From the NCBI GenBank assembly GCA_964417855.1, contig CAYQJB010000001.1, positions 358,709 through 412,981 of the forward strand: a stretch of 54,273 nucleotides of DNA, read 5' to 3'. The notes below the pieces were generated by a model that did no database searches, was not told the DNA's origin, and saw only the letters and a list, made by a program, of their open reading frames with translations. This DNA is from an uncultured Candidatus Saccharibacteria bacterium (GTDB taxonomy: Bacteria; Patescibacteriota; Minisyncoccia; Phycocordibacterales; CAIZLB01). Both the position numbers and the translations under genes were made by a program. Positions 1 through 50,200 of the stretch are shown piece after piece (the stretch's first letter is position 1; each line of letters opens with the position of its first letter).

Positions 1-73
1 AACCTCTGTAGTATTGTTTTTCTAGAAAAATTTAGTACATTTGTAAAATTTTGTGATACTTCTTCTTTCATGT

Positions 74-994
74 TTATTTATTTAAAAATTTAATAATATT
101 CTCTATCGATTCTTTGTATGTGTATTTTTTTACAATTTCCTGCTGTTTCCTAATTATAGCAAAATAACTCTCTTTTGAAAGCTCTAGACTATTTTGTATC
201 AATTCTGCTATTGTTTCTCCTTGAACATAGCTATCTCCCAGTATATCCATAAATTTTTTAACATTGGTTATTCCGAGTTGTCCATAAGATATGTTTTTAA
301 ACATTCGGCAGGGGAGATAATCTGTATCAACTTGATATTTGCCAGCAATAGCTGGCGCAATTCTGGAAACCCTCACTAAAAATCTATTAAATAAATCAGG
401 AATAAATCTAACCTTGATAAAACTAATTTTGTTTGCCTTAAGTGTTCTTTTTAGCTCATCAATTTCTCTTAGGTTACCCTGGTCTAATTTATTATTCCAT
501 ATGCTTCCGACCCAAAAAACAAATTTATTTTTATTAAATACAGGTTTCATAAATTCCTCAGCCAAGAGATCTGTACCCCACGGCTGGTACAAAGTCCTTG
601 TTTTTGAGTCAAAATATCTTGCTGTATCTATTTTAATGTCTGATTCCTCAGCTCCTTTTGAATATACGGCCAAATTAATGAAGTTTTCTCTTTTAAGTTG
701 TTTTGTAAATATCTCCTTAAGGTTATGAAGACAATAGAAAATATCTTCTCGTATAGGTAGGTTGTAATCTTCAATTTTAAACTTTTCAGGAACCATTCTG
801 CCTACAGGGTCTGCTGTAATAATTAAATCTCCTGGCTGTATATATTTTTGACTTTCCTTTTCATCCTCGACCCAAATGGTTTCATAACTAAGTTTCTTTG
901 CATTTTTGTAGAAGGCTTGATGTATATGACGATGGGTATGGTATTTCTTTCTCAACCCCCATATTACTATTCTTTTGATTTTATTTGTTTCCAT
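74..994 (-). CDS. hypothetical protein, distal gene of the polysaccharide-biosynthesis operon (possible glycan-modifying enzyme)
   Basis: 306-aa ORF whose start overlaps the end of the upstream FkbM gene (981-994), suggesting co-transcription; no motif I can name with certainty. Confidence 0.5.
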   Translation of the reverse strand: METNKIKRIVIWGLRKKYHTHRHIHQAFYKNAKKLSYETIWVEDEKESQKYIQPGDLIITADPVGRMVPEKFKIEDYNLPIREDIFYCLHNLKEIFTKQLKRENFINLAVYSKGAEESDIKIDTARYFDSKTRTLYQPWGTDLLAEEFMKPVFNKNKFVFWVGSIWNNKLDQGNLREIDELKRTLKANKISFIKVRFIPDLFNRFLVRVSRIAPAIAGKYQVDTDYLPCRMFKNISYGQLGITNVKKFMDILGDSYVQGETIAELIQNSLELSKESYFAIIRKQQEIVKKYTYKESIENIIKFLNK

Positions 995-2722: not shown

Positions 2723-3779
2723 TTGAGATTAGTTTGATAAGCCCTTTCTCCACAGATTGAATGGAATAATTTTGCTCTATCATATCTATGTTTTTTTGTC
2801 GATACACCGCAACAACACTTGGATTCTTTATATAATATTCTATATTCAGGGCAATTTGTTTATAACCATTTACTTCATGAATTAGCGATGAGTTTTTGAA
2901 TACATCCTTAAACGACATAATGTTAGGTAAACACAGTACGCACCCACACAGTGCAGCATCGTAAACCGCTACACACTGACCCTCATCAAAAGAGGAATTA
3001 ATATAAATCAGATTTTTGTTTAGAGACATAACAAGCTCTTTGTTTGGTAAAAAACCCTGTAGTATAAAATCCTTCTTAAATTCAGAGGCTTCAATAAAAT
3101 CAATAACTCTTGTATCAAAAATTTTTCCAATAATATTAATTTTTATTAAGGGATATTTTGATTTTATTAACTCAAAGGCTTTTAATACAGTCAAAATGTT
3201 TTTCTTTTCGGTTACATTTCCAAAGCAAACTAAATCCCTTCTCTCTACTCCTGTCTCTTCTAGTTTAAAAACATCTTGAGAAACAACCAGTGGTACTACA
3301 AATAATTTGATCCCTTTTGTTCCTTCCTTAAGTAAAAATTCTTTTTCAGTTTCATTGTTTAATCTAATTGCAGAATAAAAATTATATACAAAATTTTGAA
3401 TAAGTTGTTTTATTCTCGTCTGCCTTTTTGGTTGAGTGTGCGCCATAAAGATAGTTTTTCTTGCAAGAAATGGTACAACAAAAGATTGCCATTCGTAGCT
3501 GTTGACGTAAAAAACGCCCCCCTGGAAAGAAAACTTCAATATTTGATACAAGAAGTTTAAAAAATTTTTATATTCCAGAACCTCTGTGAGTTTATCAAAA
3601 TGAGGATCGTTTTCCATATCCAATCTACTGCCACCAACTATAGCATAGGTTTTAAAGCCCATATCCTTTGCGACCTTAATGGCATGAAGATGATAGTTCT
3701 CCTCAGGTGCAAAACTATACATGTGAGGTGAATAACCCCATATTATTGAAATGAATTTTTTAGTTTTTTCTTTTTTCAT
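2715..3779 (-). CDS. glycosyltransferase family 1 (GT4-like)
   Basis: C-terminal GT1 signature region (VCFGNVTEKKN...INIIGK), 354 aa. Confidence 0.7.
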   Translation of the reverse strand: MKKEKTKKFISIIWGYSPHMYSFAPEENYHLHAIKVAKDMGFKTYAIVGGSRLDMENDPHFDKLTEVLEYKNFLNFLYQILKFSFQGGVFYVNSYEWQSFVVPFLARKTIFMAHTQPKRQTRIKQLIQNFVYNFYSAIRLNNETEKEFLLKEGTKGIKLFVVPLVVSQDVFKLEETGVERRDLVCFGNVTEKKNILTVLKAFELIKSKYPLIKINIIGKIFDTRVIDFIEASEFKKDFILQGFLPNKELVMSLNKNLIYINSSFDEGQCVAVYDAALCGCVLCLPNIMSFKDVFKNSSLIHEVNGYKQIALNIEYYIKNPSVVAVYRQKNIDMIEQNYSIQSVEKGLIKLISNV

Positions 3780-5083
3780 GATAATGGTTTAAAGATTGCT
3801 GAAACGAAAGCTTTGCGTTGGTCCTTCATTCCACGTAATGAAATAGTTATTAAAAAAGGTAGGGTATAGGCAATTATGTTTGCCATAGCAGCGCCCTTGA
3901 TTCCCCAAATCGGAATAAGAATATAGTTCAACGAAAGGCTGATAATCATGCCTATTGTATTTAAAAATAATATGGTTTTAAATTTATTTTGAGCAAGCAG
4001 AAATTGCTGTAGGGCTGTTCCAATAAATACTCCGATAATTGACCATATGTAAATTCTTAGTATTAATATACTTGGAAAATAAGCGGGTCCGTATAATGTA
4101 TTAATTATTAACGGAGAAGATATGTAAATAAAAATAGATATTGCAAAGGCAGAGTAAAATAATAAAGTATATAGTCTTTTACTTCTAGATAAAAATAGAT
4201 CATGATTCGTTTTTTGAGCATTTAATATTGCTGGAAGAAGTGATGCGCAGACTACACTAGAGATGAAAAACCATACTTCAGAAAATCTAACGGCAATTAC
4301 GTATAAACCAACTGATTCTGATCCCATAAGGACCTTTATAAACACTTGATCTATTCTTACATAGACTGAAGAGGCTATTGCGGCCAGAGTAAAAGGCCAA
4401 GAGTTTGTAATAAAGTAATAAACTAATTTTTTCTTTAGTACCCAAGAAAAAATAGACCCCACGTATTTTTTATAGAGATAGGTGTATCCTATAACACTCA
4501 TTATATTGTCAAACACATATGATAGTAAAAGGAATATAATTGGTAGGCCTAGGAATACCATTATAAGTTTGATTATTGAGGAGATAAAGCTAATACACAT
4601 ACCTAGTATGGATACAGGTTTATTGTTCGCGTGTGATTGAAAATAATAGTCTATGACATTAAAGGATTGAAATATAGCAAATGTCGAATATGCTAATACT
4701 AAAAGCGTTGTTGATTGGTTGTGGGCAAAAAATAAAGCTGAGACTGTTGACGCAATTATTATAAAGAAACTATTTATAAATTTTATAAATATGGCTGAAC
4801 CTAATATTTTATTAGTATTTTCTGGCTCGTGATTTAGTTTTTTGATAACCAAAGAATCAATGGCAAATAAAGTAATGCCAGCAATACTTACAAAACTTAT
4901 AATAAAATTCAACGTACCATATTGTTCTGGACCTAGCTGTCTAGCAATATAAATACTTACGAATAACGATATAACCAAAGAGAATATCCTGCCAAAAAAC
5001 ATCCACCCTGTATTCTTCAAATACTTCTGAAAACCCGCATGCTGCCATTTTTCTTTTATGTAAGATAGGGGAATCGTAGGCAT
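3776..5083 (-). CDS. polysaccharide flippase (Wzx/MOP-superfamily) membrane protein
   Basis: 435 aa, about 12 hydrophobic segments, position in a glycan operon. Confidence 0.65.
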   Translation of the reverse strand: MPTIPLSYIKEKWQHAGFQKYLKNTGWMFFGRIFSLVISLFVSIYIARQLGPEQYGTLNFIISFVSIAGITLFAIDSLVIKKLNHEPENTNKILGSAIFIKFINSFFIIIASTVSALFFAHNQSTTLLVLAYSTFAIFQSFNVIDYYFQSHANNKPVSILGMCISFISSIIKLIMVFLGLPIIFLLLSYVFDNIMSVIGYTYLYKKYVGSIFSWVLKKKLVYYFITNSWPFTLAAIASSVYVRIDQVFIKVLMGSESVGLYVIAVRFSEVWFFISSVVCASLLPAILNAQKTNHDLFLSRSKRLYTLLFYSAFAISIFIYISSPLIINTLYGPAYFPSILILRIYIWSIIGVFIGTALQQFLLAQNKFKTILFLNTIGMIISLSLNYILIPIWGIKGAAMANIIAYTLPFLITISLRGMKDQRKAFVSAIFKPLS

Positions 5084-6287: not shown

Positions 6288-6315
6288 TTGACATGCGGCT
6301 TGATGTTGATAGAAT
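6288..6315 (+). promoter_or_regulatory. sigma70-like promoter (TTGACA, 16 nt, TGaTAGAAT) of mini-unit A
   Basis: perfect -35 hexamer at 6288-6293, 16-nt spacer, extended -10 at 6307-6315; the same architecture sits at the paralogous locus 42387-42414. Confidence 0.45.
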
Positions 6316-6321
6316 ATACAT

Positions 6322-6380
6322 GATCAGTAGAGATCATTAATCTATCGCTTAAGGGCTCCCAAAAGGAGTCCTTTTGGCTT
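6322..6380 (+). ncRNA. putative small RNA A, convergent with and abutting the 3' end of NYN gene A
   Basis: predicted start about 7 nt after the -10; two hairpins (ATGATC/GATCAT and GGGCTCC/GGAGTCC) then TTTT at 6372-6375; about 70% identical to 42421-42478 with compensatory changes in the terminal stem. Confidence 0.35.
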
Positions 6381-6381
6381 T

Positions 6382-7164
6382 CTAGAGTCTGTTGATTATA
6401 TCCTTTATTTCCTTGCTAATTTCTTTTGGCCAGCAGATAAATTCTCTTATTTTTCTTATATCAAATATGGTGACTGTGGTCTGGTTCAATTCGAATGAAA
6501 TGCATCCGGACATAGCAAAAATATATACTTTTCCTCCACCTTTTTCTATTTGTATTATAAGGTCTGCGAAATCACTATCCGTACTCCACAAGATGTAGTT
6601 TTTTGTGATTCCATTTTCGAAATCCCTTTGCATATCTCTGCTTATTTCAACATCAAAATTGCATTTTCTCTCCTCAATGTAAAGAACACCTTCTCTGTTG
6701 AGTTTTGTAAGTCTTCCGTTTAGGTGCTCAATAGACGCACTGTCCATTATGGAAATAAAATTTTTTTTGATAAAGTTACTTAAAATAACTGTAGAATTTG
6801 TAGATGTATTGGAGGTATCTATTGAAATTCTAATTAATTTCACAGCCTTTGTAGAGAGGGTATACCCTGAACTTCTAAGTTCGCTAATTTGTTTTATAGA
6901 CTCTTTGCTACTCTCCGATGTTCCAGTGTATATATTAACAGCTCTAATTGAGTCAAAGGAATCTAAAAATTGTTTAAGTCTTACAAAATGGATATGAAAT
7001 CCGAGTTTGTTTTGCCAGTGAATGACATTTTGCCAATCGATATAGATATTTGTTGAAGTGCTAAAAATTCTATTTAATTCGATTATTAGCTCGGGGAAAA
7101 GTTTTGCCAGCATTCTTATTCTATCGGTTTTGGGATTAAACATCTTTATTTTATACAGGATCAA
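6382..7164 (-). CDS. NYN-domain (PIN-like, LabA-like) putative ribonuclease, paralog A
   Basis: IYIDWQNV, CNFDVEI and ILWSTDSDF acidic motifs of the NYN fold; about 50% identical to the ORF at 42498-43271. Confidence 0.65.
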   Translation of the reverse strand: MILYKIKMFNPKTDRIRMLAKLFPELIIELNRIFSTSTNIYIDWQNVIHWQNKLGFHIHFVRLKQFLDSFDSIRAVNIYTGTSESSKESIKQISELRSSGYTLSTKAVKLIRISIDTSNTSTNSTVILSNFIKKNFISIMDSASIEHLNGRLTKLNREGVLYIEERKCNFDVEISRDMQRDFENGITKNYILWSTDSDFADLIIQIEKGGGKVYIFAMSGCISFELNQTTVTIFDIRKIREFICWPKEISKEIKDIINRL

Positions 7165-7250
7165 ATGAAAGAAATTATGAAGATTTATAAGTCCTCATGT
7201 GGATAACTTTTTGAATAACTTTATTAATTTGAATATGTTATTATGTCAGT

Positions 7251-39436: not shown

Positions 39437-40252
39437 ATGGAAACAACAAAAATCTCTTTATTTAAAGGCAAGAAAATAAGAAAAACACTATTTCAAAATG
39501 AGTGGTGGTTTTCTGTTACGGATGTAATTCTGGCTCTTACTGATAGTGCAGATTCCCGTGATTATTGGTATAGAATGAAAATAAGGGTTAAAGAAGAAGG
39601 CGGTTTTCAACTGTCGACAATTTGTCGACAGTTGAAATTACCAGCCGAAGATGGAAGGATGCGAGAAACCGATTGTACTGATACTGAAGGTATTTTTCGT
39701 ATTATTCAATCAATTCCATCAATAAAAGCTGAGCCATTTAAGCGGTGGCTTGCAAAAGTTGGTTATGAGCGAATACAAGAAATAGAAAATCCTGAATTGG
39801 CAACTAAAAGAACGAGAACACTTTACAAACTAAAGGGATACTCAGAGGATTGGATAGAAAAAAGAATGCGAGGGATTGCTATTCGAGGAGAACTGACAGA
39901 CGAATGGAAAAATAGAGGGGCAAATGAGCAAAAGGATTATGAAATCTTGACCGCTGAAATATCTAAAGCTACTTTTGGTGTTACGCCAAATGAATACAAA
40001 AAAGTAAAAGGGCTTAAGCGAGAAAATCTGCGTGATCATATGGATGATTTTGAGTTGATTTTTACAATGCTGGGTGAACGTTCAACCACAGAAATTCATA
40101 AAATTGAAAATTCAAAAGGAGTTTTAAAACTAGCAAAAGATGCCAAACGGGGTGGGGGAATTGCTGGTGTTGCTAAGAAACAATTAGAAAAAGAAATTGG
40201 TAGATCTGTAGTATCAAAAGACAATTTCCTACCAAAGAAAAAAACACCATAA
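39437..40252 (+). CDS. Bro-N domain protein (DinD / phage-antirepressor-like)
   Basis: N-terminal Bro-N signature (F...EWWFSVTDVILAL); start 4 nt after the rnhB stop; contains a 33-bp perfect palindrome at 39605-39637. Confidence 0.55.
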   Translation: METTKISLFKGKKIRKTLFQNEWWFSVTDVILALTDSADSRDYWYRMKIRVKEEGGFQLSTICRQLKLPAEDGRMRETDCTDTEGIFRIIQSIPSIKAEPFKRWLAKVGYERIQEIENPELATKRTRTLYKLKGYSEDWIEKRMRGIAIRGELTDEWKNRGANEQKDYEILTAEISKATFGVTPNEYKKVKGLKRENLRDHMDDFELIFTMLGERSTTEIHKIENSKGVLKLAKDAKRGGGIAGVAKKQLEKEIGRSVVSKDNFLPKKKTP

Positions 40253-40665: not shown

Positions 40666-41580
40666 ATGGCAAACAGACATTTATTAAGGTCAGTCGTACT
40701 ACAATCACTCTTTGAGTGGGATTTTAGAAACGTCGACAATAATTTAATCGGCGACATAGTGGTCAGAAATGCAGAAGAATTCGCTCCGGGAATGACGGAT
40801 TTTACATTCGCTAAGAAATTAGCTGATGGTGTTGTAAAAAAGAAGGCAGATTTAGATATGATTATTGAAAAAGCTGCTCCAGAGTGGCCTATTGATAAAA
40901 TCGCAAATGTAGACAGAAATGTACTTCGTTTAGGTCTTTATGAGTTGATTTTTGCTGATAGATCAGAAGTTCCAGCAAAGGTTGCAATCAATGAATCTAT
41001 TGAGCTTGCAAAGACTTATGGAGGAGAGACGTCTGGAAAGTTTGTTAACGGGGTACTTGGTGCTGTTTATAAAGAACTTGGAGAGCCTGGAAAGGATGAT
41101 GTTAGAGCTCCAAAAAAGAATAAGGATATTCCGTATGAGGAAATGCCTATCAAAACTCTGGCTGGTGGTGTGGTTTACTCAAGACATGAAGGAGAAATTT
41201 ATCTTGCATTAGTGCATGATGTTTTTGGACACTGGACATTATCAAAGGGCGGAATTGATTCATCAAAGGATATAAAGATTGCAGCAGCAGAAAAGATTGA
41301 GGAAGAGATTGGTGTTCCTGTAACTGTAATGGATGAGCTTGCAAGCAATGAATATATTGCATCTCATCCTGAGGATGGAAAGATAAGAAAGCAGGTCGTG
41401 TATTTTTTGGCTGAAGCTGAATACAAACCACTGAAACTTGAAGAAGGAAAAGGGGGGTTGGACAAAGTTCAATGGTTTAATGTAAAGGAAATTTTATCCC
41501 TGAATTTCTATAACGATATTATGCCAATAATCGTTAAGGCCCTGGGTAAGCTTTCCAATAAAGGGGAAGTTGTGGAATAA
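40666..41580 (+). CDS. nusB: transcription antitermination factor NusB fused to a C-terminal Nudix-fold domain
   Basis: residues 1-140 are NusB-like (RSVVLQSLFEWDF...KFVNGVLGAV); residues 160-300 carry a Nudix-fold pattern (GHWTLSKGG...AAAEKIEEEIGV) with a degenerate Nudix box. Confidence 0.6.
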   Translation: MANRHLLRSVVLQSLFEWDFRNVDNNLIGDIVVRNAEEFAPGMTDFTFAKKLADGVVKKKADLDMIIEKAAPEWPIDKIANVDRNVLRLGLYELIFADRSEVPAKVAINESIELAKTYGGETSGKFVNGVLGAVYKELGEPGKDDVRAPKKNKDIPYEEMPIKTLAGGVVYSRHEGEIYLALVHDVFGHWTLSKGGIDSSKDIKIAAAEKIEEEIGVPVTVMDELASNEYIASHPEDGKIRKQVVYFLAEAEYKPLKLEEGKGGLDKVQWFNVKEILSLNFYNDIMPIIVKALGKLSNKGEVVE

Positions 41581-41591
41581 ACTAATAAATA

Positions 41592-41625
41592 TTTGGGGTC
41601 AGGCACCATGGTGCCTGACCCCAAA
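41592..41625. promoter_or_regulatory. 34-bp GC-rich perfect palindrome in the rnc 5' region
   Basis: TTTGGGGTCAGGCACCA|TGGTGCCTGACCCCAAA; lies between the nusB-Nudix stop (41580) and the rnc ATG (41635). Confidence 0.5.
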
Positions 41626-42386: not shown

Positions 42387-42414
42387 TTGACATTTCTTTT
42401 GCATTTGGTAAAAT
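42387..42414 (+). promoter_or_regulatory. sigma70-like promoter (TTGACA, 16 nt, TGgTAAAAT) of mini-unit B
   Basis: same -35 hexamer, same spacer length and same TG-extended -10 as 6288-6315. Confidence 0.45.
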
Positions 42415-42420
42415 TACTGT

Positions 42421-42478
42421 GATCATAAGATCGTTATAACGCTGGCTTAGGGGCTCCTGTAAGGAGCCCCTTTGGCTG
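42421..42478 (+). ncRNA. putative small RNA B, convergent with NYN gene B
   Basis: GATCATAAGATCG... then GGGGCTCC-tgtaa-GGAGCCCC hairpin and TTT; about 70% identical to RNA A, with compensatory stem changes (GGGCTCC/GGAGTCC versus GGGGCTCC/GGAGCCCC). Confidence 0.35.
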
Positions 42479-42497
42479 TCTGTATATTTTCATGCAA

Positions 42498-43271
42498 TCA
42501 AAGCAGATTACTAGGTTCATCAATTATATCTTTTATTGAGCTGTAAATTTCCCTTGGCCAGCAAATAAATTCCTTAATCTTCTTTATTTCAAAAACCCCA
42601 ATATTTAGTTTAACCAGTTCTCTGGAGGTCCTACCGGCTGTTGAAAATATAAAAATACCCTTATTTTCTTTTGTTATAGCGTTTATCGGGTCAACAAAAT
42701 CACTGTCTCCGCTCCATAGGATGAAGTTATTAATATTATTTTTATATAAATCAAGAAACATGTCTCTAGCTATCTCCACATCAAAATTACATTTTTTATC
42801 TTTCAGGTAAAAAACTCCCTTGTCATTTAAATCTTTAAAGAGATTATTTATTGATTCTATTGCCTTAACGTCGAGAACAGATAATAATGGTTTTTTAACA
42901 AAAGGTTGTAAAAGTAAGGTAGAGTTTTTGGATATATTTAAAAAATTAATAGGGTATAACATTATTTTTACCAATTTTGTTTCAACCTTATACCCGAGAT
43001 TTGTAAATTCAGTTATTGATTCTTGTGATCCCTCATCATTAGTAAGAGTTCCTGTATAAATATATACAATCTTAATTGTGTTGAAAGAATCAAAAAAATG
43101 CTTCAACCTCCTTGGGTTTATATGCCAACCAAGTTTGTCTTGCCAATGTATTACGTTTTGCCAGTCTAGATAGATATTTGAAGTCGTGGCAAAAATCTTT
43201 TCGAGTTCAATAATTACTTCTGGAAAAAGTCTTGCAAGATTTTGTATTCTTTTTGTCTTAGGGATAAACAT
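42498..43271 (-). CDS. NYN-domain putative ribonuclease, paralog B
   Basis: IYLDWQNV, CNFDVEI and ILWSGDSDF motifs; paralog of 6382-7164; TGA stop. Confidence 0.65.
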   Translation of the reverse strand: MFIPKTKRIQNLARLFPEVIIELEKIFATTSNIYLDWQNVIHWQDKLGWHINPRRLKHFFDSFNTIKIVYIYTGTLTNDEGSQESITEFTNLGYKVETKLVKIMLYPINFLNISKNSTLLLQPFVKKPLLSVLDVKAIESINNLFKDLNDKGVFYLKDKKCNFDVEIARDMFLDLYKNNINNFILWSGDSDFVDPINAITKENKGIFIFSTAGRTSRELVKLNIGVFEIKKIKEFICWPREIYSSIKDIIDEPSNLL

Positions 43272-43458
43272 ATATAGTGTTGCATATAATATAAAAAGGT
43301 AGATAAATAAAATCCAAAGATTATATATGGTACCTGTGGATAACTTCTACAGATGAAATTGAGTTGAACCTGTTATGCATTTAATGTTTGTGGAGGCATA
43401 CTAATTTAGTATATTATATGTTATATTATATGAACTTGAGTACATATTGATAATAATA

Positions 43459-47267: not shown

Positions 47268-50200
47268 AAATTCATAAACAGAGCTCGCAATAAAAAAAAT
47301 ATATTCCTACTCGGGATATTTTTTATGTTTGCAATAGTTCTAATCCCCAGCGTTTCAGAAGCATCAATGTTGCTTCCTAAAGATATTGGAACTGGAGCAA
47401 CTGGAGAAATCAATACTTGTGGCGAATTGATTTCTGGTGAATATACACTAACTTCAAATGTTACAGCAGAAGGTACATCCTCTTGTTTTATCATCAGTGG
47501 AGATAATGTGAAAATAAACGGCGGAGCGTTTACAATATCGGGAACAGGAGAAGTTGCGATTGATGCAAGAGTACGAGATGTTGTTGCAACAAGTTCTCTT
47601 GTAAAAGGTGCAAATGGATATACAAACATAATTATCAACGACCTTAACATCACAGGTTTTACTGTAGGTATTAATGCAAGTGGTAATAGTGATGACGGTG
47701 TCATTGGAGTAGATGAATCACCAAGATCGGGGAACGGTGGAACTGGAGGTGATGTCTTAATATCATACTCGTCAATAGGTAGTATTTTTACAAATGGAGG
47801 TGATAGTACGACAGCCTCTGCTGGCGCAGGAGGAAGTCTTTATGTATTGGACACGGATTTAGATATTTCAAATAGAACAATATCTCTTTTAGGGGGTACA
47901 GGGACAAACGGAAAGGAACCTGATGGAGGTTTGACTCTCAAGTACACTGGCGCACTAACAAAGACAAATCTTACCCTAAGTTCCCTGAACTTCTTCAATA
48001 TATTTATTAGTAACGATACCCAAACTCCAACCACATCTTTTGGAATATATGCTGGAGGTACCTGGCCAATTTTACCAGGGGCAGTGTCCTCTTGTGGAAC
48101 CCTGCTTGGGCCTGGAATATTCACACTGTCAGGAAATGTAACTTCTACCTCATCTACTTGTTTTTTGATTTCTTCAAATAATGTAACAATCGACGGCGTT
48201 GGACATTCTGTCATTGCAAGTGATGCTTCTACTACTGCGTACGCAATAGTGGCGGGGAATTATGATTCAACAACAATTGCTTCAACTACAGTTTTGGGGT
48301 TTGTAAAATACATTAACTCAAGTAGTTCAGTTACAATTTCGGGTGGTAATGTCGATCTATCAAATAAATACATAAAAGCTGATACCCTTACTGTTTTGGC
48401 AGGGACTCTTGATGTTACAAATACAATTTTTGCAGTACGTATTTTAAATCTTAACTACGGCGCTTCAATTACAGGGGACTCTACAGCAACCACAGAAGGT
48501 CCTACTTCTCTCAAAATAAATAATTTTGATTACGGATTAAAGAATACGGAGTCTTTAGTTACTAATGGTTGGGTAGCTAGAAGTTCGGTAAAAAATTGGT
48601 ACTCAATTACTTCGTCTTTAGATGGAAAAAAACTAGCGGCTGTTGAATACGGAGGTTACATTTACACCTCCACGGACTCTGGTCTAACTTGGGCTTCGAA
48701 TAATAATTCATCAGGAAGTCATAACTGGTCTTCGATTACGTCTGATGCCTCTGGAACAAAACTCGCTGCTACTGAATTTAGTGGTTATGTCTATACCTCA
48801 ACAGACTCAGGCCTAACATGGTCTTCACATAATAATAACAATAATTCTAGCCCTAAATCTTGGACTTCAATAACATCCTCAATTGACGGAACAAAACTAG
48901 CGGCTGTTGAATACGGAGGTTACATTTACACCTCCATGGACTCTGGTCTAACTTGGTCTAGTCGTGCAAGTGATTATCCAACAAGAGATTGGGTGTCAAT
49001 CACCTCATCTACCGATGGTTCAAAACTTGCTGCTGTTGAAAGTAATGGCTCTCTTTATTTTTCTGCAGACTCTGGTCTGACATGGTCTACAAATAATGAG
49101 TCTTCTGGTATTAGACATTGGACTTCAATAGCTTCATCTGCTGATGGTTTAAAATTGGTTGCAGCTGGATTAGAGCCTGTTGCAGGTAATTATACAGGAT
49201 ACATTTACACTTCAACAGACTCAGGCCTAACATGGTCTACAAATAATAATTCTTCTGGATTACACAAATGGCTTTCTGTAACTTCTGACTCATCTGGTGC
49301 AAAGCTTGTTGCTGTGGAAGAAGATGGTTATAGATATACTTCCATAGACTCTGGTCTAACATGGTCTGCAAGTAGTGATTTTGCATCATCAACTCGTGCT
49401 ACTTTGAGTTCATCATTAGACGGATCAAAAGTGGTGGAGGCTGTATATGGTAAAAATATTTACACACACACCGTAGTTCATCCAGACTTTTCAATAAATA
49501 TTTTAACTCCTAATGCTGGAGATAACATTCAGTACTGGCAGTCACCATATATACTATGGGGATCAGCACAAACCTGTTATTATTCATATGATAATTTTTT
49601 ATCAAGTAATAGCGTAAATTGTTTACTTAACGGATCTGATATTCTCAAACCTGCAAGTGCGGGAGATAAAACTTTGTATGTTAGGGGTGTGGATAATCTA
49701 GGTGTTGTAATAAATCGACAGGTAAACTTTCATTATAATAATAAGGATATATTAATTAATGAACCTGCTTTAAGTTCTGAAAAATCAGCTACAATATGGT
49801 TTCCAAACATTAATTACAGTATTTCAAATAAAAGCCTTAAATCATGTTCTTATTCATATAATAATTTTGCTTCAACTACATCCTCAGATTGTTCATTGAA
49901 TGGTTCAGATATTTTACCTCCTACTTCACACGGTTCCAGTACTTTATATATTAAAACTGTTGACCAAAATGATAATGAAAGTTTGGAAAATGTACAGTTT
50001 ATGTATTATTTTGGTTATAGTACAAATATTTCTGCCGATTTTAGCTATTGGAATTCTGTTGCTACATCCTTGGATGGAACAAGGATTGCGGCGATTAGTG
50101 CGGGACTTTACATAAGAATTTCCTCTGACTCTGGGTTGACGTGGAAAAATATTGATGGAAGTAATGGGACAACTAATATGAATGGTCGTGGTTGGTCTAA

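Follow-up and report, generated by a model that had tools for sequence, protein, structure and literature searches.

In type III toxin-antitoxin systems (ToxIN, CptIN and TenpIN) the gene for a small structured RNA is closely linked to that for an endonuclease, and these systems are associated with mobile elements and defence. Both properties, together with an RNA that is presumed to inhibit its partner directly, recur in a two-gene unit that we examined in a 54,273-nucleotide stretch of contig CAYQJB010000001.1 (the window, meaning this whole stretch), where a gene for a LabA-like NYN nuclease and a small-RNA gene face each other at two places, loci A and B. The architecture differs, however. 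Toxins of type III systems have the ToxN/AbiQ fold rather than a LabA-like NYN domain, and ToxI-type antitoxins are tandem direct repeats on the same strand as the toxin gene and upstream of it, with a terminator between the two, whereas here a single RNA unit with its own promoter and no evident processing sites lies convergent at the 3' end of the nuclease gene (79 of 80 loci retrieved). Phages escape ToxIN by carrying mimics of the antitoxin RNA, to which RNA-only copies in phage contigs form a parallel in the present case.

Convergent RNAs that run over the 3' end of the partner gene are known from type I systems with 3'-overlapping antisense RNAs, such as txpA/RatA and bsrG/SR4 of Bacillus subtilis, which also share the strong constitutive promoter and the intrinsic terminator. 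Their toxins are small hydrophobic membrane peptides, unlike the soluble NYN protein of 253-257 aa encoded here; their RNAs are not conserved in sequence over long distances, and the overlap in the present family often involves the stop codon only. Since the defining architecture of type I and of type III systems is lacking alike, the module would belong to neither. GadY, encoded opposite the 3' end of gadX, is a further small RNA that lies over the end of a possible target gene, but it is lineage-restricted and has neither phylum-wide covariation nor orphan copies.

The protein partner resembles other LabA-like NYN proteins (PF01936, COG1432, structure 2qip) in sequence, fold and catalytic residues, and its subfamily differs from them in being always paired with the RNA and in carrying an insert of about 75 residues as well as two helices at the N-terminus. 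In a 2017 classification of the PIN superfamily, LabA-like NYN proteins are listed as of unknown function and no RNA partner is mentioned; a role of bacterial members in tRNA or rRNA processing has been proposed, and the same work noted PIN-like nucleases adjoining type I restriction-modification genes without a protein antitoxin (PMC5499597).

The analyses firmly establish an undescribed family of structured small RNAs, with its own promoter and terminator, that is genetically coupled to a LabA-like NYN nuclease, is spread across the Patescibacteria and occurs occasionally on mobile elements elsewhere. The elements of the two window loci are as follows.

Locus B:
42387..42414, plus strand: promoter of small RNA B, with the -35 hexamer TTGACA at 42387-42392, a 16-nt spacer and the extended -10 element TGgTAAAAT at 42406-42414
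42416..42481, plus strand: small RNA B, about 60 nt (covariance model, 49.8 bits, E = 4.6e-8, a rough value from a shortened calibration)
42421-42432, plus strand: hairpin 1 of RNA B, GAUC-AUAA-GAUC
42433-42444, plus strand: linker of RNA B
42445-42476, plus strand: hairpin 2 and terminator of RNA B, with a GC...GC clamp, a U-rich internal loop and a 10-bp upper helix
42477-42481, plus strand: tail of RNA B
42498..43271, minus strand: NYN-B gene, an open reading frame for a LabA-like NYN nuclease of 257 aa (Pfam NYN, E = 6.4e-15)
43335..43343, plus strand: exact DnaA-box-like 9-mer TGTGGATAA (TTATCCACA on the NYN strand), 64 nt upstream of the NYN-B start

Locus A:
6288..6315, plus strand: promoter of small RNA A, with TTGACA at 6288-6293, a 16-nt spacer and TGaTAGAAT
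6318..6383, plus strand: small RNA A (covariance model, 57 bits, E = 1.4e-9, equally rough)
6321-6336, plus strand: hairpin 1 of RNA A, with the loop AGUAGA
6337-6346, plus strand: linker of RNA A
6347-6378, plus strand: hairpin 2 and terminator of RNA A, with the conserved G.U pair
6379-6383, plus strand: U-rich tail of RNA A, overlapping the NYN-A stop codon
6382..7143, minus strand: NYN-A gene, a paralogue of NYN-B (51% identity) of 253 aa from the ATG at 7143
7198..7206, plus strand: exact DnaA-box-like 9-mer, 55 nt upstream of the NYN-A start

An earlier note on this DNA had proposed that locus B repeats locus A as a promoter-driven convergent unit, and much of that proposal held when re-examined. 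The promoter reported for locus B was verified in coordinates and sequence and, matching the consensus at 11 of 12 positions with the extended TG, is the top candidate of its region; the locus A promoter, also 11 of 12 with TG, is the best match of its own. Their geometry is equal, with a 16-nt spacer in both and GATCA beginning 6 nt past the -10 element in both. Local alignment of the two flanks scored 50, against 16.0 ± 2.4 (maximum 27) for shuffled sequences and 16.1 ± 2.5 (maximum 29) for random segments of the window. Both RNAs also fold as had been predicted, each into a short 5' hairpin and a long 3' hairpin (-21.0 kcal/mol, z = -3.4 for A; -27.8 kcal/mol, z = -4.9 for B). Near-consensus promoters, a flank alignment far above that of shuffled sequences and the folding of both RNAs together confirm the unit as real. 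The RNA is indeed conserved at least as well as its partner gene, with 75% identity between A and B over 66 nt compared with 61% nucleotide identity of the coding sequences, and the figure of about 50% identity given for the two proteins agrees with the 51% over 252 aa found here.

The comparison of the terminal stems fared less well. One of the paired changes that had been read there is a true compensatory change, at the base of the upper helix (A-U in A, G-C in B), while the other is one-sided (G.U in A, G-C in B), RNA B having G-C where the family usually has a G.U pair. A stem length difference between the copies was not upheld: in the family-wide register the helix is equally long in A and B, and that of B is not one pair longer. 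With a single real compensatory pair, the evidence from the A/B pair alone is thin. The conclusion drawn from it, a separately promoted convergent mini-unit whose RNA structure is under selection, is nonetheless right and is supported by the covariation, the strand bias and the fixed-distance promoter found in related sequences.

As the earlier note had suggested, further copies were sought, and they define the family. A covariance model (R1), built with sequences from other genomes from 34 diverse copies of one common length, recovers in the window the sites 6318-6383 (57 bits) and 42416-42481 (49.8 bits); the next match in the 54 kb reaches only 15.7 bits, so that the window holds exactly two sites. 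The predicted transcript of about 60-65 nt comprises a few leader nucleotides, hairpin 1, a linker, hairpin 2 and a U-tail. Hairpin 1 has 4-12 bp and is mostly capped by a GNRA loop, as in GAUC-GNAA-GAUC, GUUC-GAAA-GAAC, AACC-GAAA-GGUU and GACC-GUAA-GGUC, and the A/U-rich, single-stranded linker of 11-12 nt has two nearly invariant positions and is otherwise variable. The 3' helix consists of an invariant G-C/C-G clamp, a U-rich internal loop, a 9-bp upper helix containing one invariant G-C pair and a conserved G.U pair, and a stable tetraloop, with the block consensus GCUU(R)(R)GGGCUCC-GCAA-GGAGUCC(Y)UUU(K)GC followed by U's.

In the model-based alignment with its 16 modelled pairs, 98.4% of cells hold standard pairs and 12 of the 16 pairs show compensatory changes (307 cells changed on both sides). 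The covariation score is 0.626, compared with 0.245 after shuffling and with none of 500 shuffles reaching 0.626, and sliding the pairing register drops the paired fraction to 40-69%. As such an alignment leans towards its model, a plain MAFFT alignment made without structure was given to RNAalifold as an independent check, which recovered the 3' helix with 11 pairs, of which 7 were compensatory and almost none broken. Hairpin 1, checked without any alignment, forms in all 170 unique copies, with a GNRA tetraloop in 134. The G.U pair is present in 79 of 84 sequences, and the 3' helix also has a U.U/U.U(K) internal loop; between lineages with proteins of just 44-68% identity, the clamp, one of the G-C pairs and the G.U pair vary little or not at all.

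The RNA strand folds more stably than its complement in 170/171 copies, by 6.5 kcal/mol on average, because the G.U and U.U pairs turn into C.A and A.A mismatches on the NYN strand. This advantage, the GNRA loops and the conserved G.U pair identify the strand opposite the NYN gene as the functional RNA. A search of the whole window against Rfam 15 at gathering scores let only a tRNA-Thr pass and gave no small-RNA match, and permissive scans of locus A, locus B and a typical family member (L010) returned chance-level matches well below the gathering scores. No description of the RNA family or of an NYN-RNA pair was found in a literature search.

Two other readings of the conserved sequence were rejected. 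A tiny open reading frame is readable in the window copies (MISRDH and (V)IIRSL), but its start is absent in 49 of 171 copies and its lengths scatter; a generic terminator used genome-wide is contradicted by the presence of only two copies in 54 kb and by the finding that 94% of RNA-anchored matches lie at an NYN gene.

Side observations on the RNA sequence concern short palindromes. Those of 6 nt (CUUAAG, AAGCUU, GAAUUC, UUCGAA, UCUAGA) are enriched, occurring in 100/171 copies compared with 45 ± 6 in shuffled sequences, and are located in the linker and the base of helix 2 (42433-42451 and 6337-6353 in the window). They could hint at dimerisation of the RNA or may simply reflect the conserved GCUUAAGGG block. 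In many family members, hairpin 1 is made up of two GATC sites.

The coupling of RNA and nuclease was measured from both sides. A search with the NYN-B protein returned more than 1,100 clusters of close homologues with source labels such as Parcubacteria, Paceibacterota, Nomurabacteria, Wolfebacteria and similar groups, although the organism labels of many metagenome-assembled genomes are unreliable. For the protein-anchored set, 80 genomic loci were fetched through the NYN protein alone and the reverse complement of the DNA past the stop codon was inspected, the unit being visible there in nearly all of them; for the RNA-anchored set, public metagenome contigs were scanned with an RNA-only pattern, giving 108 matches that have 300 nt or more of sequence beyond their 3' side. 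The covariance model found the RNA at the NYN 3' end in 80/80 protein-anchored loci, convergent in 79, and an adjacent convergent NYN homologue was present in 101/108 RNA-anchored loci, so that the linkage is near-obligatory in both directions. Altogether about 180 further loci with the RNA-nuclease pair were fetched, from ultra-small bacteria of the candidate phyla radiation (CPR) and a few mobile elements and phages, and the RNA family extends over Parcubacteria, Microgenomates, Gracilibacteria and related groups.

The junction between the two genes varies. The U-tail lies over the NYN stop codon in 34/79 loci, the class to which locus A belongs, and in another 34/79 the 3' helix is partly or wholly inside the last NYN codons, which makes 68/79 loci in which the RNA tail or hairpin reaches into the stop codon or the coding sequence. 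In the remaining 11/79 the RNA stays at least 6 nt from the stop codon; locus B, whose stop codon is 16 nt past the predicted 3' end of RNA B, is of this kind. Because the stop codon shifts in position relative to a fixed RNA, the RNA is the constant element and the C-terminal tail of the protein the variable one. Tandem RNA pairs follow one NYN gene only in L071 (817-981) and L079 (1389-1545), and L051 has two complete modules 3.7 kb apart (RNAs at 47-112 and 3761-3824) that flank RadC and HsdM.

Signals for separate transcription accompany the RNA throughout the family. A sigma-70-type promoter (TTGACA, 16-18 nt, TATAAT) that matches at 9/12 positions or more, is correctly spaced and precedes the RNA by a fixed distance is present in 154/169 copies as against 23/169 shuffles, and the distance from the end of the -10 element to the GCUU anchor is 29-32 nt across family copies. 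Helix 2 doubles as an intrinsic terminator, the family consensus ending in GGC/UGC followed by UUUUU. A terminator scan called a hairpin with T-tract at locus A and none at locus B, where the U-tract is poor (tail UGUCUGUAUAUUUUC). The NYN strand has no U-tract after the hairpin at loci A and B of the window, nor in the reverse-complemented family consensus.

A DnaA-box-like 9-mer (TTATCCACA; up to one mismatch allowed, both orientations counted) adjoins the -35 element of the RNA promoter in 33/79 protein-anchored loci, where 0.03 would be expected, and in 51/91 RNA-anchored copies (0.045 expected). At the two RNA promoters of the window no such 9-mer abuts; exact boxes are found instead upstream of the NYN starts, where those of loci A and B lie within a common 12-mer, AAGTTATCCACA, and the locus A box overlaps a weak candidate -35 element (TCCACA) of a minus-strand promoter. 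There are only three exact copies in the 54 kb, the third of which, at 49688, was judged by reading to lie within a coding region and to be unrelated to the module. This distribution suggests that expression is tied to DnaA through a putative box at the RNA promoter or, in the window, at the NYN promoters.

The two window proteins match Pfam NYN (PF01936) with 56.4 and 42.8 bits, above the gathering cut-off of 24.2. An AlphaFold2 model of NYN-B (predicted local distance difference test score, pLDDT, 91.4) was compared with solved structures by Foldseek, and the LabA-like NYN protein 2qip was the only significant PDB match (E = 6.8e-7), no other relative of solved structure being significant. 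Across 29 homologues, D36 (with N39), D164 and the S-x-D189-x-D191 motif do not vary, and they align with the matching motifs of 2qip; given these canonical acidic residues, the protein is likely an active nuclease. The inserted subdomain of about 75 residues (roughly residues 76-150), which accompanies the two N-terminal helices as an extra of the subfamily, gave no significant structural match, and its only PDB sequence hit, ribosomal protein L23, was not significant (E = 0.085). When 1.8 billion representatives at the 50% identity level were searched exhaustively, 58 matched with E <= 1e-30, and only about 30 of these were full length. No NCBIfam model matches the subfamily, and PADLOC-DB 2.0 contained no full-length defence-protein match, giving only C-terminal, domain-level ones (HEC-09, 5.6e-8; an NYN model, 7e-6 and 4e-7).

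The genomic surroundings change from locus to locus. All-against-all clustering of flanking open reading frames disclosed no conserved protein neighbour or operon beyond restriction-modification subunits. Type I (HsdS, HsdM, HsdR) and type III (Mod, Res) restriction-modification genes, confirmed by Pfam, are the commonest neighbours, being within 3 kb in 18/80 protein-anchored loci and on the same fetched stretch in 20/63 RNA-anchored loci of at least 4 kb. The protein-anchored loci concerned are:

L001, L010, L023-L025, L032, L051, L052, L054-L057, L065, L070, L073-L076

In a 3-Mb contig labelled Acidobacteriota the module stands between a large serine recombinase and a HerA/TrwB-like ATPase, in one IMG/VR contig it is beside an integrase, and the window itself contains two paralogous modules. 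The module thus moves between genomic contexts.

Seven RNA-anchored loci are without an NYN gene. Three of them (L127, L151 and L164) form one group of closely related contigs in which the RNA alone is present with its own promoter and both hairpins (43-47 bits) amid genes of phage replication and recombination, and the member that was tested against PHROGs, L127, carries replication initiator, HNH, Erf-like and NinG genes. Their RNA copies are located as follows.

L127, 11302-11364, minus strand: RNA-only copy
L151, 1050-1112, plus strand: RNA-only copy
L164, 1003-1066, minus strand: RNA-only copy

Others of the seven lie opposite a gene for a MutH/Sau3AI-like nuclease, opposite mreC or, in restriction-modification surroundings, opposite a RhuM gene. 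In L118, for example, an orphan RNA (640-704, minus strand, 67.6 bits) is convergent to a MutH/Sau3AI-type nuclease gene (1-597, plus strand). A first, strict pattern scan of viral sequences found nothing, and a looser pattern combined with a protein scan yielded three IMG/VR contigs. L203 has a match at 10762-10818 (plus strand, 42.7 bits), and the stretch fetched contains genes for a tape-measure protein and tail J but none for NYN; on inspection by eye only the 3' helix is evident in the match, with neither promoter nor 5' hairpin. The IMG/VR contig L204 has one at 682-743 (minus strand, 54 bits), also with no NYN gene in the fetched stretch, and its two tested open reading frames had no PHROG match.

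Of the functions that such a pair could have, we favour a mobile pair of toxin-antitoxin or defence type, with the NYN nuclease neutralised by the RNA, and we consider the chances of this being correct to be about even. What points to it are the variable neighbours, the nearby restriction-modification genes, the paralogous copies, the integrative elements and the RNA-only copies in phages. Each locus would be a self-contained two-gene module of a LabA-like NYN metallonuclease and a convergent, strongly promoted RNA gene of about 60 nt, with the RNA produced in excess from its near-consensus promoter as a dedicated antitoxin-like inhibitor. Pure cis-antisense action needs no conservation of sequence and wobble pairs of the kind seen here, which makes a sequence-specific partner likely and NYN the obvious candidate. 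The most likely mechanism would therefore be direct binding of the conserved 3' helix, with its GC clamp, U.U loop and G.U wobble, to NYN, as in type III systems. Antisense pairing of the type I kind may contribute, because the RNA 3' end overlaps the stop or last codons of NYN in most loci. A falling RNA supply, or infection, could then free NYN and lead to addiction or to an abortive-infection-type defence, and phages with RNA-only copies would use them as decoys.

Several observations weigh against this toxin-antitoxin or defence reading, every functional step of which we infer from sequence. The NYN subfamily is compact and well conserved, which fits a conserved cellular role at least as well, since typical toxins diversify faster. 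RNA antitoxins, too, usually diverge fast, and this RNA is conserved phylum-wide. The genes that surround the two window loci are housekeeping genes, namely pfkB and fba for locus A and rnc and smc for locus B, and the PADLOC matches are weak and at the level of domains only. The restriction-modification frequency of 22-32% is uncalibrated against the genome-wide background, any enrichment being an estimate only. The phage cases are few, amounting to about three independent contig groups of which at least one is possibly a 3' helix only. Finally, in L080 (3001-3867), the sole locus of the 80 with a co-directional RNA, the RNA has its own promoter and the NYN gene is disrupted, its frame stopping at 3129 and resuming at 3148.

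The main rival is a housekeeping RNase of RNA maturation or turnover that is controlled by a cis-antisense small RNA through 3'-end pairing and transcriptional interference, as for GadY and gadX, with no toxin or defence logic. The convergent layout, with the RNA over the stop or last codons in 68/79 loci, would be expected from it, as would the compact and well-conserved protein family and the housekeeping neighbours at both window loci, and a role in tRNA or rRNA processing has been proposed for bacterial LabA-like NYN proteins (PMC5499597). We nevertheless regard it as unlikely. Complementarity between convergent transcripts is automatic and needs no conservation, yet the clamp, the G.U pair, the U.U loop and the GNRA caps are kept throughout the phylum, and RNA-only copies exist far from any NYN gene, phage contigs included. 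Neither the lack of conserved synteny nor the frequent restriction-modification neighbours and the integrative elements suit a housekeeping pair, and the 5' part of the RNA has no extra complementarity to the 5' region of the cognate NYN gene: trans pairing of the RNA 5' half with the cognate initiation region, which was tried as a candidate, came to -11.5 kcal/mol against -11.4 for non-cognate pairs (p = 0.34) and was left unsupported.

Less probable again is a ribonucleoprotein, in which the RNA would be a cofactor, scaffold or guide that activates or targets NYN instead of inhibiting it. The near-obligatory gene linkage in both directions would follow directly, the single-stranded linker with its two nearly invariant and otherwise variable positions might serve such a role, and the NYN insert (about residues 76-150) could bind RNA. 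Against this, a programmable guide would not be expected to be as short as the linker (11-12 nt) or semi-conserved from one genome to the next; an activator of a host nuclease would be of no benefit to a phage; and no candidate target complementarity was found, with the NYN 5' region as the only target examined. That the hairpins are merely an NYN 3' untranslated region or a shared bidirectional terminator, with promoter-like hexamers arising by chance in AT-rich DNA, is hardly credible in spite of the hairpin placed directly at the NYN stop codon and the terminator called at locus A, since it is already contradicted by the fixed-distance promoter (154/169 against 23/169 shuffles), the 6.5 kcal/mol greater stability of the opposite strand in 170/171 copies, the lack of a U-tract after the hairpin on the NYN strand in the window loci and the family consensus, the conservation with covariation of hairpin 1 and linker, the orphan copies that retain the promoter without NYN, and L080, where the whole unit has the opposite orientation.

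A broader form of the toxin-antitoxin or defence reading can be formulated around the DnaA-box-like sites, and it is offered as a tentative and rather doubtful proposal. It would make the pair an unrecognised RNA-controlled nuclease system widespread in Patescibacteria, with NYN held inactive by its dedicated RNA, the transcription of one partner wired to DnaA through the putative box, and phages employing RNA decoys. The nuclease might then be released once the RNA or the DnaA signal is lost in the course of phage infection or with the loss of the element. Such a system would form a new class among those with RNA antitoxins, combining an NYN toxin, a single convergent RNA and DnaA input.

The Patescibacteria (CPR) are a large and poorly understood group. 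Their genomes are tiny, few regulatory RNAs have been recognised in them, and besides restriction-modification few of their defence systems are known. The RNA family is new, being absent from Rfam, and so brings an immediate gain for genome annotation. If the pair is indeed a toxin-antitoxin or defence module, it would represent a new RNA-antitoxin architecture and would imply counter-defence by RNA mimicry in CPR phages as well as an unexpected regulatory link to DnaA. The pair also provides a first concrete, testable partner for the LabA-like NYN group, whose function is given as unknown in PMC5499597.

Other features were observed in the vicinity of locus B. A perfect 28-nt palindrome, GGGGTCAGGCACCATGGTGCCTGACCCC, with TTT and AAA flanks, occupies 41595-41622 between the nusB-NUDIX gene and rnc and is not followed by a U-tract, whichever strand is read. 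The gene at 39437-40252 (plus strand), 2 kb upstream of locus B, encodes a protein with a Bro-N domain, of a kind common in phages and mobile elements. The single open reading frame at 40666-41580 (plus strand) encodes an unusual fusion of a NusB domain (residues 8-136) and a NUDIX hydrolase domain (residues 169-280).

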